IMG/VR virus record: IMGVR_UViG_3300044678_003030
Span: 1 to 64,000 of that record
Source: a virus
DNA length: 64,000 bases
Strand: one strand, 5' to 3'
The position numbers and the translations under genes are program-made. Of this stretch, positions 2,944 through 22,292 are shown in pieces. The notes below the pieces were generated by a model. That model did not search any database. It saw only the letters and a program-made list of their open reading frames with translations, and was not told the DNA's origin. Positions within the stretch are counted from its first letter, which is position 1. Every line of letters begins with the position of its first letter.

Positions 2944-3273
2944 TCATACCCGCATCCTCGCGACGTCGTAGAGGATCTGACGGTGCGTGTCCGCCTCGAT
3001 CGCGCACCGCGCCGCCTCGTAGAACTCCTTGTTCTCGACGAGCGCTTCGACCTGCGTGTTCGCGTAGTCGAGCTTGTCGATGATCATCTTCTCGACGGCA
3101 TCGAGCGCGCTGTTGTAGCTCTTGCCGTGCTCGCCTGACCCGCCGAAGTGGTGCAGGCAGTAGTCGATGAGGTCGGCGATCACGGACATGCGGATGATGT
3201 TCGGCAAGGCGCGGATCGCGTCGCGCGCCTTGACCAACTCTTCGCGGTTGAAGTGGTAGTTGGGAGGGGTCAT
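2944..3273 (-). CDS. hypothetical protein
   Basis: ORF with ATGA coupling. Confidence 0.6.
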   Translation of the reverse strand: MTPPNYHFNREELVKARDAIRALPNIIRMSVIADLIDYCLHHFGGSGEHGKSYNSALDAVEKMIIDKLDYANTQVEALVENKEFYEAARCAIEADTHRQILYDVARMRV

Positions 3274-4949: not shown

Positions 4950-5218
4950 CACGGCAGTCCTCCATATCCGCACGTGCTCGCGAACGACTCAGCGAGCTCC
5001 GCGCGGCGTTGCATTTTCTCGTAGACGATGCGGCCATCGAGCAACCTCTGCTCCATCGCCTTGACGGTGTCATTGCGGATGTCGAGCGCGAGGCGCAGCC
5101 CCTCCCTTTGTTGGATCAGCTCCGCGAGCACCTGCGCGAGCTCCTTGTCCGGGTCCATGGCGAGGTTCAGGCGCATCTGCAATCGCTCGACTTCGGCGCG
5201 TACCTTGTCTTCCTTCAC
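4949..5218 (-). CDS. coiled-coil hypothetical protein
   Basis: Heptad-rich ORF. Confidence 0.55.
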   Translation of the reverse strand: MKEDKVRAEVERLQMRLNLAMDPDKELAQVLAELIQQREGLRLALDIRNDTVKAMEQRLLDGRIVYEKMQRRAELAESFASTCGYGGLP

Positions 5219-5574: not shown

Positions 5575-5951
5575 TGAGCAGCCTCCTTCTCCAGGCGCTT
5601 CGCGATGTCAATCAGGTTGAAGATGTCTTCCTTGGTGCGTCCGTGCGCGTCATTGAACACCACGATGTCGATGTCTCCGTTGAGATAATCGGTGTAGTCC
5701 TCGCCCGTCAGGACACGCCCCAAGGCTTTGTGGAGCGGGCGGGTCGCGCGGTCGCGGACGTCGTCCACCCCGCTACGGGAAGCGCACGCGAGCACCAGCG
5801 CACCACGAAGACAGAAGGAACACGCAGTGGGCTCGGCGTAGTCCGTCGGCTTGCCCTCCGCATCACGGGCGTACGTCCCCTGCGTCCACCCCTTCTCCGT
5901 CAGGATCTTCTTGGTCTCATCCAGGACATCGATCACGTCGTTGTAGCTCAT
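5571..5951 (-). CDS. DUF6197-like phage protein
   Basis: GWTQG..ARD...FCLRGAL...FND..GRTKEDI pattern. Confidence 0.6.
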   Translation of the reverse strand: MSYNDVIDVLDETKKILTEKGWTQGTYARDAEGKPTDYAEPTACSFCLRGALVLACASRSGVDDVRDRATRPLHKALGRVLTGEDYTDYLNGDIDIVVFNDAHGRTKEDIFNLIDIAKRLEKEAAQ

Positions 5952-7618
5952 TGGATCTCCTCGATTGCCTTGTAGATGCTCTTCCAGCGGCGGAGCGCGA
6001 CGCCCTTGATGTTGGCGTCAAGCCACGCGGCGTCGTGGAGCTGCGCGATCGTGGTGCCGCGCTTGTTGAGGATGGCGCGGACGTAGGCGGCGCGGCGGCG
6101 CAGCCGGGCGAGTGAGTGGTGAGGGAAGCGCTTCAAGAAGTCCCCCCAGAAGTCAGCGCGCTTCCACTTCCTGGCGTAGAGCGACAGGTAGGTGTCCTCT
6201 GCGATCGTGAAGGGGTACGCCTTGGCCCGCTTGCGCCGCTTGGCGTCCGTGGCCTCGTTGAACGCCTTCTTCCAGTCCAGCTTGGAGCCATAGAGACGCT
6301 GGAGGTGCGCCGAGAGGGCCGGCTGCTTGAGATGCGTCGCGAGGACAGAGAGCGAGACGAAGAGCGTCGCGGGGACATCTCGGAACCGGTAGCAGGGGGC
6401 GCCGGCCTCGTTGTAGGCGGCGAAGTCCTTGGCGGCGAGGTTGACGAGGAGACCAGGAGGGATGTTGTTGAAGGCGTCGATGTTGATGAAGAGGGTTTCG
6501 TTCTTGCGGCCGAGCGAGAGCGTGGGCGTGGTGACGAGGTCCGCGAACTCGGCGGGAGTACGAACCGTGATCTCCTTGAGGCGCCGATGGCGTGGAGGTC
6601 TTTCACCCCGTGAAAGGTGCTGGCCAGTGGTCTTCTCGGCGCGCTTGATGAACGCGGAGGCGTCGGCCCGGTAGATGACCGTGAAGTTGGCAGGGCTGTA
6701 GCTGACCGACTGGAGCTGATCGGTGCGCTCGAAGATGCGCACGCACGTGTCCTGCCCTGCGGTGCGGAAGGTCTCGCGGAGCCAGTCGCGCAGGTTCGCG
6801 GCGGCTGAGATGCGCTTGGCCTCTGGCACGGCCTCGGCGATCGTTTCGGCGCGGAGCCACGCGGGGTGGTCACCCGTGGTGATGACGTCGAGGGCGACGC
6901 CCTCGTGCCGGATCACGACGTAGTTGTTGTCGACCATGACACCGTAGCGCTCGCGACGGAGGAGGGCTGCGAGCTCTTCAGCGTAGGAAGTGCGGCAGGA
7001 GATGGGGAGAGTGCAGACAGCGTCGACGAGGTGGGTGTTGTCGATGAGGCCAGGAGCGTCGACGAAGGCAGGGGCGTAGAGCTCGGAGACGCTCAGGTCT
7101 GCGTTGGAGGCGCCGGTCCAGAGGTAGGGGGCGAAGAGGAGGTTGAACTCCTTACGCAGCAGCGTGCGTACACGCGGGCGAAGGCGCAGCAGTCGCGCGA
7201 GCTGCGTGCGGACCTGGGAGAAGCGGTCGAGGTCGCCAGCGGTCGTGTGGCCAGGGCTCTCGACGAGGTGGGAGCTGAGGACCGAGGGGAACGGAGGTTG
7301 GACGAGTGGGCCGAAGGCGGCGAGGCGAGCCCTGATGAGAGGGCAGACGGCGTCGAAGGCGGGGGACGCCGCGATGAGCTGGAGCGCGATGAGCGTCGGC
7401 TGCGACGACTCGATCGAGCCCTCGGGCGGCAAGAGCCCTGTGGCGAGCTTCGCCCAGTCCAGGCGCAGACGGCGGCTGGGGGTGACCCCCGCGAACGAGA
7501 CCCCCGCAGGGAGCGACCCGGAATGGTGCGTTACGAGGTTTTGCAGGGCAGAAACCATATAACGACGCCAAGAGGCTTCCCAGCTAGGCTTTATAGCGAG
7601 CGGCTTCTCATCTTTCAT
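5948..7618 (-). CDS. 556-aa putative DNA-binding protein with C-terminal Myb/SANT-like HTH
   Basis: RBS CAAGGAG upstream. C-terminus FTIAEDTYL...W...FLKRFPHHSLARLRRRA matches the Myb repeat pattern. Very basic C-terminal third. Confidence 0.6.
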   Translation of the reverse strand: MKDEKPLAIKPSWEASWRRYMVSALQNLVTHHSGSLPAGVSFAGVTPSRRLRLDWAKLATGLLPPEGSIESSQPTLIALQLIAASPAFDAVCPLIRARLAAFGPLVQPPFPSVLSSHLVESPGHTTAGDLDRFSQVRTQLARLLRLRPRVRTLLRKEFNLLFAPYLWTGASNADLSVSELYAPAFVDAPGLIDNTHLVDAVCTLPISCRTSYAEELAALLRRERYGVMVDNNYVVIRHEGVALDVITTGDHPAWLRAETIAEAVPEAKRISAAANLRDWLRETFRTAGQDTCVRIFERTDQLQSVSYSPANFTVIYRADASAFIKRAEKTTGQHLSRGERPPRHRRLKEITVRTPAEFADLVTTPTLSLGRKNETLFINIDAFNNIPPGLLVNLAAKDFAAYNEAGAPCYRFRDVPATLFVSLSVLATHLKQPALSAHLQRLYGSKLDWKKAFNEATDAKRRKRAKAYPFTIAEDTYLSLYARKWKRADFWGDFLKRFPHHSLARLRRRAAYVRAILNKRGTTIAQLHDAAWLDANIKGVALRRWKSIYKAIEEIQ

Positions 7619-7752
7619 GAAGGCTCCTTGAGTTGAAGGGTCTTGCGGCGAACTAAAAATCAGGGGCGCTGTGAAATATAGGTACCCTGCGAAGGGTGTT
7701 GTTGCAGGAATCAGCGACGCTGTAAAGGAAATCGAGCAGGTTCGACTAGAGA

Positions 7753-7780
7753 CTTATACCAAATATATCAGGGCCTTTAG
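7753..7780 (-). promoter_or_regulatory. phage promoter AAA-N15/16-GGTATAAG (left IR arm)
   Basis: Reverse complement TAAAGGCCCTGATATATTTGGTATAAG, upstream of the leftward operon. Confidence 0.6.
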
Positions 7781-8377
7781 CTTTCGCAACGCAACCCATT
7801 GAAGCTGCTCAGGAAAGCCTGTGATCAGAATGTCACTATAGGACGAGTTTCACGTTTTGGCCTACAGCACAGGCAAATCCACGAGTTTTGCGCTCCAGGT
7901 TGACAACCTCCAAATACATAGGGGGGGTCTGAAGAGCTCACGTACGCACGCGACCTCCTCAACATAGTGTAGCGTAATGTATCTATAATATATTAGGTTT
8001 CCTGGACACGTATATATTGAGACCCTCAGAGCTGCTGAAATTCTGTAAAGGCTGCAAACCCCGTAGGGGCACCCTCCGGGTGATCCCGAACAAGGCGCGG
8101 CGCGGCGCCGCCCGGTTCGCGGCCTCGCGGTGTGTTTCGCTTGGATTCCCGGTGAATTCGCGCTGCCGGAGGTCGGTGGGAGATCGGCCCACCAATGCCG
8201 GGCTCCTCCGTGGAGGGAGTGCGCTCTGCTCTGGACCCCCTATGTATTTGGAGGTCGTCAACCTGGATCGCAAAACTCTCGGATTTGCCTGAGTTACAGC
8301 GCAAAACGTGAAACTCGGCCTATAGTGACATTCTTGTCGAAGCCTTTCCTGGGTGTTTTCAGCCGGTTGCGCTGCAA

Positions 8378-8408
8378 AAAAAGATGGCCCTAATATATTT
8401 GGTATAAG
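8378..8408 (+). promoter_or_regulatory. phage promoter (right IR arm)
   Basis: AAAAAAGATGGCCCTAATATATTTGGTATAAG. Confidence 0.55.
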
Positions 8409-8542
8409 TCTCTAATCAACGTTGAGCTTTCTACCTTGTTCTGCTGTGATTTCCTGCAACAACACCCTTCACAGGGTACCTATACTTCACGCGAAGGCTT
8501 CACCTTTATTTCGTTCGTTCACCTGCTTTTCAGGACGTTCCA

Positions 8543-8743
8543 GTGAACGATGAGAAATCGCCCAGTATAAAGCCTTCAACACAAGCTTTTCTCCCGTTAT
8601 ATCCGTTTCTCTGTGTGCTGTTCCGCTGTGGCCCTCGTGCCTCGCCGCCCGACCCCCGAATTCGCGGGCTAACGACCTCCCACGTCATGCAGCGTCCACG
8701 GCGCTCACCTCCCCTACGCTGTGTGTCTTGCACCTACATGTAG
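8543..8743 (+). pseudogene. degenerate inverted copy of the 5' end of the 556-aa gene
   Basis: MNDEKSPSIKPSTQA versus MKDEKPLAIKPSWEA; the DNA homology also covers the RBS region. Confidence 0.55.
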
Positions 8744-8794
8744 TAGACGCAGCTTTCCCATCCGTAGGCATCGGGAGCCTTCGGCGGCGTCTAG

Positions 8795-9487
8795 TTAGCG
8801 GGCTTCGAGGACAACGCGGTCGCGCTGATAGGTGTTGTACTGGTGGGAATCGTGATGCGGCGTGTACTTGCCCGTTCGCACGAGCAGGAAGAGCACGTCG
8901 TGAAACGCTTCGGACTCACGGCAGACGCTGCCTGTGATGGCGGCGCTGTTGAACTTGTGGAGTCTGCGCACGGCGTCGAGCTTGTTGAAGCACGGCCAGA
9001 GGTAGTAGGCGTTGTGGATCCTGTGCACACGCGCGCTGAGCACGCTCGGCGTGGTGTTTTGCCCGTGTGTCCACACGCCGATGGCGACGCCCATGCCATA
9101 GGCGCGCACCAGATAGTCACGCCGCCACGGTGCAGGCCAAGGAGCGAGGAAGATCAGCGTGAGCAACCACCACGGCGAGAACACCGCCAACAGCGCCAGC
9201 GCTGCAAACCCTTGTGGAAACAGCCACTTAGGCCAGAACAGCCTGTCCTTCTTTTGCTCTTCGAGGAGCACGTAGCCCTGCGCGAGCATCTTGAAGCTGT
9301 ACCAGGGGTCGGCGTCGTACGCCTCGGTGCTCGGTACGTAGAAGGTGCGACCGATCGCCGACCAATGATGGCGGTAGACAGGGATGTGGGCGTGCAGCAT
9401 CGACGCCTTCTTCGCCCGCACTTTCACACCGAGCCGATGAGCGATCTGCCGTTCGAGCGCCTCGCGAAGGTTGCGGTTGTCTGCCAT
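8795..9487 (-). CDS. membrane protein
   Basis: ATG 9487 MADNRNLRE...; Trp/Pro-rich hydrophobic hairpin. Confidence 0.65.
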   Translation of the reverse strand: MADNRNLREALERQIAHRLGVKVRAKKASMLHAHIPVYRHHWSAIGRTFYVPSTEAYDADPWYSFKMLAQGYVLLEEQKKDRLFWPKWLFPQGFAALALLAVFSPWWLLTLIFLAPWPAPWRRDYLVRAYGMGVAIGVWTHGQNTTPSVLSARVHRIHNAYYLWPCFNKLDAVRRLHKFNSAAITGSVCRESEAFHDVLFLLVRTGKYTPHHDSHQYNTYQRDRVVLEAR

Positions 9488-9500
9488 CAGTTTCACCTCG

Positions 9501-9529
9501 TGAAATAAGGCTACGAGGCGGGTATAAGG
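9501..9529 (+). promoter_or_regulatory. phage promoter GGTATAAG
   Basis: TGAAATAAGGGCTACGAGGCGGGTATAAG; overlaps palindrome 9492-9504. Confidence 0.6.
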
Positions 9530-9567
9530 GAGTAGACACAACCCTCTGGCAACGAAAGGGCCATCTC

Positions 9568-10056
9568 ATGATCACGCTGTATAGGTCGTACACGAGCCTC
9601 ATGCTTGGGATCGCCGAGGGGCGGTACCAGGACAAGGTTCTCCTTGATCCTGCGTGCAGGTTTTTCTTCGGGTGTTCGTGGCCCCTCGCGACCAACCCCG
9701 AGCGCTCTCTGCGCGAGAACTTCTACGTGGGCACACCCGCGCCGATCGTGCCCACCTCAGACGTGGACGCGCTACGCAACATCGTCGGGCTGTTCGCGGC
9801 CTACTACGGCGCGGATGTCGCGAACCTTCAGTCCCGCACGCGCTTCGCCAAGGATCATCACGGGGTCAAGACCGCGACGAGCGCGACGATCGAGCACCTC
9901 CTTGACTGGCCTTTCGCCACGTTCGAACGCCACCTTCAAGGGAGTCGTATCAAGGCAGAGAACGTCGTCGACAGCTATTCCGATCTGGAGGAGGCCGTCG
10001 AGATCGTCAACCTCTCCGGCATCGACCCCCAGGTCAAGGTCGTGTGGAGGCGATGA
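9568..10056 (+). CDS. hypothetical protein
   Basis: RBS GAAAGGG; first gene after the promoter. Confidence 0.65.
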   Translation: MITLYRSYTSLMLGIAEGRYQDKVLLDPACRFFFGCSWPLATNPERSLRENFYVGTPAPIVPTSDVDALRNIVGLFAAYYGADVANLQSRTRFAKDHHGVKTATSATIEHLLDWPFATFERHLQGSRIKAENVVDSYSDLEEAVEIVNLSGIDPQVKVVWRR

Positions 10057-10694: not shown

Positions 10695-10723
10695 CGAAAC
10701 CCGCAGGGTCAGGGTGGTATAAG
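10695..10723 (+). promoter_or_regulatory. phage promoter GGTATAAG
   Basis: CGAAACCCGCAGGGTCAGGGTGGTATAAG. Confidence 0.6.
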
Positions 10724-10807
10724 GAGATAGAGCGAGCGCATGACGCGCAACGCCTCCCGCACCCACTAATTGGTGCTTGCCCCCAGGGTGATGGGGGCAC
10801 AGGAGTC

Positions 10808-15915: not shown

Positions 15916-16175
15916 TGTTCAAGCCCCAGGTGCTGTACATGTCCCGTACGCAGTGGAACCAGATCCGCGAGCTGATGGGATTGCCGCCGTGGTGTGAAGC
16001 CTGCGAGGGCACAGGGTTGATCCCTGGCGGCTACGACGACTGCGGTAGGGAGGCGCAGGCTGTGTGCAGCCACGACCGCAAGGAGATCGACGAGGAGCTT
16101 CGAGCGCAGGAGGACGCCAAGTTTCGCGCTACGTTAGAGGGGATTGCCGCGCGAGAGAGCCTCAAGTCCCTGTGA
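15912..16175 (+). CDS. small protein with a CxxCxGxG motif
   Basis: CEACEGTG. Confidence 0.55.
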   Translation: MMFKPQVLYMSRTQWNQIRELMGLPPWCEACEGTGLIPGGYDDCGREAQAVCSHDRKEIDEELRAQEDAKFRATLEGIAARESLKSL

Positions 16176-22220: not shown

Positions 22221-22245
22221 AACATGGTGGCGCCTCGGGTATAAG
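22218..22245 (+). promoter_or_regulatory. phage promoter GGTATAAG
   Basis: TGAAACATGGTGGCGCCTCGGGTATAAG. Confidence 0.6.
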
Positions 22246-22292
22246 GAGATAGACAAGCGCGTGGTGCGCTGCGTCTCACCCGGGAGTTTTCC

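Follow-up and report, generated by a model that had tools for sequence, protein, structure and literature searches.

Outward-facing promoter-like arms around an AT-rich core in an uncultured lake phage: a candidate divergent control region found in five related genomes

Divergent promoter/operator control regions of phages are exemplified by PL-OL and PR-OR around the immunity region of lambda and by Pant/Pmnt in the immI region of P22. Replication origins can also lie between divergent promoters, as do the oriL and oriS palindromes of herpes simplex virus (HSV), the SV40 control region and Escherichia coli oriC, located between gidA and mioC, and the transcriptional activation of lambda ori belongs with these cases. 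Segments that invert are known from fimS, Salmonella hin, the G segment of Mu and the C segment of P1, whose inverted repeats measure 0.6 kb, and large inverted repeats homogenised by recombination occur in the yeast 2-micron plasmid, in plastid genomes and in herpesviruses. The locus described here lies in a stretch of 64,000 nucleotides (nt), called the window throughout, which is the first 64 kb of the IMG/VR virus record IMGVR_UViG_3300044678_003030, a single sequence of 93,956 bases (our G000) with a GC content of 63% that CheckV places at 53% completeness. In it, two long inverted arms, each carrying an outward-facing octamer of a promoter-like kind, flank a non-coding core next to a gene for a protein of 556 amino acids (aa). 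We read this element, tentatively, as a symmetric divergent-promoter control region that is probably recognised by the adjacent Myb-like 556-aa protein.

The initial annotation of the window had described arms of about 380 base pairs (bp), most alike in their inner ~260 bp, around a core of some 300 bp with an AT-rich and a GC-rich patch, and our measurements agree with that description. The two arms align without a gap, with 254 of 381 positions identical, and their inner 257 nt are 79% identical (blastn E value 1.8e-56). Three repeat segments lie in one register, such that paired coordinates sum to 16161, and the arms as a whole are a mosaic in which near-identical blocks alternate with stretches of no similarity. 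Self-comparison of the 94-kb record found no other spaced inverted repeat of at least 60 nt, and every arm block occurs at a single locus in the record. The repeat is not an assembly artefact, because the two arms differ from one another, because a contig from a second, independent lake sample, listed under a different study, is identical letter for letter across the left arm/core junction (7751-8173), and because the layout recurs in relatives. An artefact, or a structure with no origin, inversion or terminus signal and no conservation in relatives, had been named at the outset as grounds for discarding the feature; the structure is present in five related phage genomes. We also considered a foldback element or a miniature inverted-repeat transposable element, and ruled both out on the grounds that the element is single-copy, sits at a fixed locus and has the same two flanking genes in a sister phage.

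The public sequencing runs that contain the stretch are lake-water metagenomes, with no RNA run listed among them, and 80 relatives of the phage were recovered using its head-protease protein as the query. The long-armed form of the element is known from two sequences, the window and L003, a 3.9-kb metagenome contig of the sister phage, and in L003 the first codons of the 556-aa homologue lie inside the arm just as they do in the window. Three further genomes of more distant relatives, G001 (also labelled L086), G003 (L099) and G006 (L109), bring the repeat-bearing genomes to five, with arms ranging from 75 to 381 nt and cores from 217 to 310 nt. In each of these three records, self-comparison returned the repeat as the sole spaced inverted repeat, and its arms terminate at an outward -10-like element. 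The arms of G006 adjoin two divergently oriented genes and the TATAAT in each of them could be used outwards, while in G001 and G003 one arm adjoins a conserved gene for a 131-aa protein. The flanking gene thus varies by lineage: it encodes 556 aa in the window and L003, 131 aa in G001 and G003 (77% identical to each other), and 288 aa in G006, where a small divergent gene accompanies it. The small flanking proteins of the relatives gave no sequence match in Pfam or the PDB, and a ribbon-helix-helix identity that we had considered for them was left unsupported by the same searches. The repeat is missing from the incomplete genomes G004 and G005 and from six more distant near-complete genomes. 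When the accessory region surrounding the element was compared with G001, G003, G004, G005 and G006 by tblastx, the matches were mostly noise and contained one credible shared gene.

What most sets the element apart is the way in which its arms vary. Within the five genomes the two arms are identical at fractions of 0.83, 0.82, 0.82, 0.81 and 0.84 of their positions, whereas between genomes the identity of corresponding arms reaches 0.73 at most (window versus L003, with gaps) or the arms cannot be aligned at all. In a four-way alignment of the arms of the window and L003, both arm pairs match in 206 columns, 69 of which carry one base in the window and another in L003. This joint change extends into the duplicated first codons, even though those in the right arm are non-coding, and the arms are gapless within each of these genomes though their lengths differ between the two. 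Because the arms are alike within a genome but unalike between genomes, the comparison identifies the two arms of a genome as changing together, that is, by concerted evolution. The cause would be gene conversion, co-selection by a shared binding factor, or both. Separately, we observed that the arm identity is nearly constant (0.81-0.84) in all five genomes despite full turnover of the sequence and arm lengths that run from 75 to 381 nt, which looks like an equilibrium or a constraint.

Each arm is ordered in the same way when read outwards from the core, with ~165 nt of upstream sequence, the octamer GGTATAAG, a leader containing a conserved 40-nt block, and then either the first codons of the 556-aa gene or a decayed copy of them (Table 1). 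The octamer occurs 9 times in the 94-kb record, against ~1.3 copies expected from base composition, and 8 of the 9 are on the plus strand, usually shortly upstream of a plus-strand open reading frame (ORF) and with a GAAA, TAAA or AAAA element ~15 nt further upstream. It is also frequent in relatives, with 11 copies in G006, 8 in G005 and 27 in G008. Because of this enrichment in the record and frequency in the relatives, GGTATAAG is, as far as its distribution tells, a promoter-type signal of this phage group, present as one outward copy per arm, and the motif underlying the outward promoters proposed by the initial annotation is therefore in place on both sides. The same annotation had the homology between the arms extending into the ribosome-binding site (RBS) and the first codons of the 556-aa gene. 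This was correct for the codons only, since the AAGGAG of the left arm faces AGGACG in the right arm and is not conserved between them. Its view of the right-hand copy of the gene start as decayed was upheld, in that the ORF at 8543-8743 has a GC content at third codon positions (GC3) of 0.60 compared with 0.86 in the 556-aa gene; on the same value we ruled out that this ORF codes for a protein. Two other promoter candidates were set aside. A T7/SP6-like promoter, CACTATAGG, in an arm block was treated as chance, being restricted to the two arms and not kept in L003, and a sigma-70 promoter (TTGACA) at the inner arm ends has no -10 partner and is likewise not kept in L003. Elsewhere in the window, the 16-mer GGTATAAGGAGATAGA, in which the octamer is joined to the Shine-Dalgarno-like AAGGAG, occurs in two identical copies (10716-10731 and 22238-22253), an arrangement suggesting that the transcripts of some genes are very short or leaderless-like.

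Table 1. Features of the repeat locus and its flanks in the window, followed by the layout of the element in four related sequences. Positions are those of the sequence named in the first column.
Sequence	Feature	Position	Strand	Remarks
Window	556-aa gene, adjoins left arm	5948-7618	-	GC3 0.86
Window	Left arm, candidate promoter module read leftwards	7545-7925	-	Upstream region, -10-like element, leader, RBS, first ~25 codons
Window	Left-arm RBS, AAGGAG	7624-7629		
Window	Left-arm 5' leader, conserved 40-nt block	7671-7710		Hairpin 7684-7697
Window	Left-arm -10-like GGTATAAG	7753-7760	-	
Window	Left-arm upstream region	7768-7925		
Window	Left-arm inner-end block	7898-7925		Partner 8236-8263, 27/28 match; arm segment best conserved between genomes
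Window	Inverted-repeat segment 1	7744-7925/8236-8417		182 nt, 82%
Window	Inverted-repeat segment 2	7671-7710/8451-8490		40 nt, 95%
Window	Inverted-repeat segment 3	7586-7617/8544-8575		32 nt, 81%
Window	Asymmetric non-coding core	7926-8235		310 nt
Window	AT-rich centre	7960-8020		GC minimum of contig
Window	TATAAT	7984-7989		Sole copy in 94-kb record
Window	Conserved motif ACGTATATAT	8008-8017		
Window	CTGCAA	8052-8057		Same order as in relatives
Window	GC-rich part of core	8058-8190	+	Candidate hairpins; present in window and L003; no clear counterpart in G001/G003
Window	Terminator-like hairpin	8117-8130		
Window	CGGTGTGTTT	8128-8137		Same order as in relatives
Window	Right arm, candidate twin promoter module read rightwards	8236-8612	+	No AAGGAG; GC3 non-coding
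Window	Right-arm -10-like GGTATAAG	8401-8408	+	
Window	Right-arm leader block	8451-8490		
Window	Right-arm decayed copy of 556-aa gene start	8543-8575		
Window	Short non-coding patches between right arm and 248-aa gene	8624-8656, 8691-8720		73-92% conserved with L003
Window	248-aa membrane-like gene, converging on right arm	8795-9541	-	Likely true start ATG near 9487
L003	Arms	1580-1946/2235-2601		~367 nt, gapless; core 288 nt; order: convergent 248-aa gene, repeat, 556-aa homologue
G001	Arms			~100 nt; core 217 nt; genome 49% GC
G003	Arms			~75 nt; core 278 nt; genome 68% GC
G006	Arms			119 nt; core 289 nt; complete genome, 172 kb

The core holds the least GC-rich stretch of the whole contig: the contig minimum is the 30% GC measured over 60 nt at 7961, and with windows of 60-400 nt the lowest GC values all lie inside the repeat region. 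The hexamer TATAAT is strongly avoided elsewhere in the record (7.4 copies expected, one found), and in the 172-kb genome of G006, where 8.3 would be expected, its only copies are those in the two repeat arms (region 137312-137827). The left two thirds of the core (~7945-8165) are better conserved with L003 than the arms are, the segment 7844-8160 being 69% identical and in the same orientation. The cores of the more distant relatives share short colinear motifs, ACGTATA[TA]A[TA] followed by TTGCAA and then CGTGTG, and have GA-tracts and alternating purine-pyrimidine tracts beside the AT centre. No reading frame of the core is conserved with L003, and a protein-coding core was ruled out on this ground.

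The 556-aa protein belongs to a rare family, with 10 detectable members among 1.84 billion representative proteins. Like most proteins of the record it has no match in Pfam or PHROG, and its two close homologues are 60% and 48% identical to it. A profile built from 11 family members matched Myb DNA-binding domains in the PDB (3osf, E value 1.2e-4; 1h8a, E value 0.009). The AlphaFold (AF2) model obtained with the family alignment has a predicted local distance difference test (pLDDT) score of 82, and comparison of its fold gave weak matches (Z up to 4.7), grouped around helix-turn-helix folds of the homeodomain/Myb kind at about residues 465-539 and around winged-helix DNA-binding domains at about residues 208-330. 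Judged from the profile and the model, the protein is likely to bind DNA. Further relatives of the gene were found neither in IMG/VR nor among cultured phages or bacterial genomes, the gene and the repeat DNA are both absent from 27 distant relatives, scans of IMG/VR with the core motifs gave no matches, and a protein atlas yielded no usable lead for the protein.

If the element is a symmetric control region, each arm would be a copy of one promoter module, the two copies standing back to back and both firing outwards. The left copy would drive an operon that starts with the putative DNA-binding protein, and transcription from the right copy, its non-coding twin, would run into the 3' end of the convergent gene for the membrane-like protein. 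Occasional gene conversion, together with the need for one lineage-specific DNA-binding factor to recognise both arms, could keep them alike. The best candidate for such a factor is the product of the gene that adjoins the arm, which here would be the 556-aa protein acting on its own promoter, and it is in keeping with this that the flanking gene differs between lineages, as the arm sequences do. The AT-rich, easily melted centre of the core would serve as a hub for binding and unwinding, and it may double as an origin of replication. According to the twin-domain model, diverging transcription accumulates negative supercoils between the two units, and the core sits where a pair of diverging transcription units would concentrate them, which would favour its opening. 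What the sequences show is the repeat and its conservation, the concerted evolution of the arms, the promoter-class motif in each arm and a conserved core that does not code; that the promoters are active, which factor binds, that the arms convert one another and that supercoiling or replication plays any part are inferred. A number of points weigh against it. Promoter activity is deduced solely from motifs; the GGTATAAG site of the right arm is not preceded by A-tracts in the register found at other such sites, and there is no gene for that arm to express. Known operators are far shorter than arms of 100-380 nt. The fold matches of the 556-aa protein are below the noise level of the tool, and the flanking proteins of the relatives match nothing in Pfam or the PDB, so that calling them regulators is a guess. 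Finally, the window and L003 do not significantly share the positions of identical blocks within their arms (Fisher p 0.06; Spearman 0.27, p 0.18), and therefore selection on common operator blocks is not demonstrated.

The initial annotation had noted the twin outward promoters without using them as an explanation, and had offered instead a bidirectional origin, a cruciform or terminus-processing site, or an invertible core; of these only the origin remains a candidate. In an origin, the main rival to our reading and one that we regard as possible if on balance unlikely, the AT centre would unwind, the arms would bind an initiator, perhaps the 556-aa protein itself, and the outward promoters would aid opening, all of which could coexist with a control region. 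The GC minimum is what an AT-rich unwinding element should look like, the element is unique in each genome, a predicted DNA-binding protein is encoded next door, and the centre of the core has been conserved in genomes whose GC content ranges from 49 to 68% and whose flanking genes differ. In the relatives, the GA-tracts and alternating purine-pyrimidine tracts that adjoin the AT centre would also suit an origin, as would a tandem array of four 47-nt units that lies 300 nt from the repeat in G001. However, the window has no iterons, in the sense of at least three direct repeats (in the repeat region, no k-mer of at least 10 nt is found three times), and between positions 5000 and 11000 it has no tandem repeats beyond trivial two-copy ones; neither our contig nor the complete G006 shows a turn of the cumulative GC skew at the repeat, weak evidence given that skew in these phages follows gene orientation; and DNA polymerase A is encoded at a distance of 87 kb in G006 and of 58 kb in G001, although none of these three negatives is decisive for a phage. 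Nor was a DnaB-type helicase found nearby. Beside the repeat, the relatives encode small proteins with no relationship to known initiators, the 556-aa protein yielded no match to a Rep family or fold, and the repeat is absent from the six more distant near-complete relatives. A more specific version, an origin of the subclade in which a centre prone to non-B DNA is opened by negative supercoiling from the twin outward promoters while the arms are held at ~82% identity by a balance between gene conversion and the avoidance of inversion, would be a design not described for phages, and we consider it unlikely. It is very improbable that the element is a neutral relic, an old inverted duplication of a promoter region that persists by gene conversion and has no function of its own. 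The dead copy of the gene start in the right arm and the block pattern that is not significantly shared between the window and L003 are what such a relic would leave, but the layout has survived in five genomes in which the arms have turned over and the flanking genes differ, with arm identity held in the same narrow range in all of them and the centre of the core conserved.

Concerted evolution would imply recombination between the arms, and such recombination might flip the core and redirect a promoter in it. The core sizes of 217-310 nt match those of known invertible promoters, near-perfect blocks of 25-40 nt are present at the inner arm ends of the window, L003 and G003, and the sole TATAAT of the contig lies in the core. 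Nevertheless, the serine and tyrosine recombinase families PF00239 and PF00589 were unmatched in G000 (which is incomplete, as stated above), G001, G003 and the complete G006, although the control genomes were positive, and the 556-aa protein has neither type of recombinase domain. Core orientation agrees between the window and L003 and between G001 and G003, and a single orientation, with no inverted joint, was seen in contigs from three lake metagenomes, with the proviso that contigs can drop minority forms. Since each arm already has its own candidate outward promoter, an inverting promoter would also be unneeded, and the proposal of a recombination-invertible core finds no support and is in our estimate quite improbable. 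It is also improbable that the core encodes a small structured RNA transcribed rightwards from the AT-rich patch, with the arms as incidental flanks. For such an RNA, the window and L003 preserve all 40 of the base pairs predicted in 8058-8190, of which 8 have altered bases at both positions, and the G.U pairs are compatible with the plus strand only; a -10-like hexamer stands 6-7 nt upstream of a conserved GGTTTCC in both sequences, and a terminator-like hairpin lies at 8117-8130. This hairpin set was derived from the same two sequences on which it is tested, and it is a lead only. Against it, the folding energy of the core is no better than that of shuffled sequences on either strand (z -0.5 and -0.8), and Rfam gave no match at E values up to 1 for positions 6500-10000 of the window, and none for the repeat regions of L003, G001, G003 and G006. 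In G003 and G001 the cores are conserved in sequence but do not share an RNA fold (-4.6 kcal/mol), and neither has a clear equivalent of the GC-rich part. We also considered that a core RNA might pair in antisense with the leaders next to it, and dropped the idea, complementarity being no better than for shuffles and whole-length duplexes not being meaningful. Pairing of the arms with each other, as a cruciform, a hairpin in single-stranded DNA, a long RNA hairpin or a telomere-resolution site, is hardly credible. Only the inverted symmetry and the gapless register speak for it. The mismatches have no bias to G.U or G.T on either strand (30 versus 32 in the window, 16 versus 17 in L003), and transversions are as common as transitions among them; pairing has therefore not been under selection. 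An asymmetric spacer of 310 nt and mismatches of 17-33% make extrusion of a cruciform implausible from what is generally known of DNA biophysics. There is no palindromic centre for telomere resolution and no protelomerase or other Pfam match in the 556-aa protein, and the complete repeat-bearing relative G006, like G010 and G013, is classed as having direct terminal repeats. On these grounds we reject the cruciform or terminus-processing site, and the unbiased mismatches likewise rule out a long hairpin of RNA or DNA between the arms.

The genes around the element require an adjustment to the earlier description, which had both gene orientation and local purine skew flipping at the repeat. The next gene to the right, at 8795-9541, is itself on the minus strand, plus-strand genes begin at 9568, and the annotated genes therefore diverge at ~9.5 kb, to the right of the repeat. 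A purine shift does exist, the fraction falling from 0.63 to 0.45 across 7-9 kb, and the change is local. In comparison with L003 the 8795-9541 frame is 86% identical in nucleotides and 84% in amino acids, with mismatches distributed over the three codon positions as 28/23/55, and by this comparison it is a real minus-strand gene. Its 248-aa product has a hydrophobic Trp/Pro-rich segment and the look of a membrane protein, and it is much better conserved with L003 than the 556-aa protein is (84% versus 60% of amino acids). The spacer between the right arm and this gene differs in length in the comparison of the window with L003 (~180 versus 440 nt). At the real point of gene divergence, 9487-9568, L003 has nearly the same sequence. 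The likely start codon (ATG) of the 248-aa gene is overlapped by a copy (9492) of the dispersed palindrome TTCAC-N3-GTGAA, and a GGTATAAG site at 9521 lies 47 nt upstream of the plus-strand gene at 9568.

Some features of the relatives deserve mention in their own right. The 131-aa gene of G001 (2368-2763) has 64% GC within a genome of 49% GC, and its protein is 77% identical to the counterpart in G003, whose genome has 68% GC. Because the gene is a compositional island in G001, the repeat-plus-gene module may have moved between phages, as this contrast suggests. The first 3300 nt of the same contig are rich in tandem arrays around the repeat, with a telomere-like array of the CCTCTAAAACCC type at the very start (1-78), the array of four 47-nt units at 1457-1645, 3.8 units of 53 nt at 3016-3207 and 6.6 units of 11 nt at 3200-3272. 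G003 has a transfer RNA (tRNA) gene on the minus strand (15946-16017, 66 bits), while neither tRNA nor transfer-messenger RNA (tmRNA) genes were found in the window.

The element is the one conspicuous non-coding landmark common to the five genomes. Because it is shared while the genes around it change, it is the obvious place in which to look for an early control switch or an origin, and for uncultured large lake phages of this kind the start of gene expression and of replication could be sought there. It also gives a concrete candidate DNA target for the Myb-like 556-aa protein, which would otherwise be an orphan. Beyond these phages, arms that bear promoter-like motifs and are held at the same intermediate similarity in each genome make a compact case for concerted evolution of regulatory DNA in viruses.

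A literature search found no described equivalent of the element, and its relation to known systems is one of partial likeness in each case. With the control regions of lambda and P22 it has in common that two outward promoters, putative ones here, flank a short control segment, and that the repeated sites are alike within a phage and different between phages, with a DNA-binding protein encoded alongside (the binding being putative in our case). Their operators measure 14-20 bp, however, compared with gapless arms of 75-381 nt here; no recognisable repressor family is encoded at our locus; the segment between the promoters is non-coding where lambda has cI; and one putative promoter of the pair has no gene. 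The origins of HSV, SV40, E. coli and lambda resemble it in their AT-rich centre, symmetric arms, outward transcription units (predicted ones here) and a possible origin-binding protein nearby, but they are built from a short near-perfect palindrome or arrays of initiator sites, whereas this element has an asymmetric spacer of 217-310 nt, no iterons and an origin role that is putative. In fimS, hin, Mu G and P1 C, inverted repeats likewise bracket a segment of the size of a promoter switch, and the P1 case shows that long repeats can flank an invertible phage segment; in contrast, the repeat-bearing records have no invertase gene, one orientation is seen, and the arms themselves carry the candidate promoters. 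As in the 2-micron plasmid, plastid genomes and herpesviruses, two copies evolve in concert within a genome, but the repeats of those systems are near-identical and kilobases long, while the arms described here stand at ~82% identity in every genome examined.

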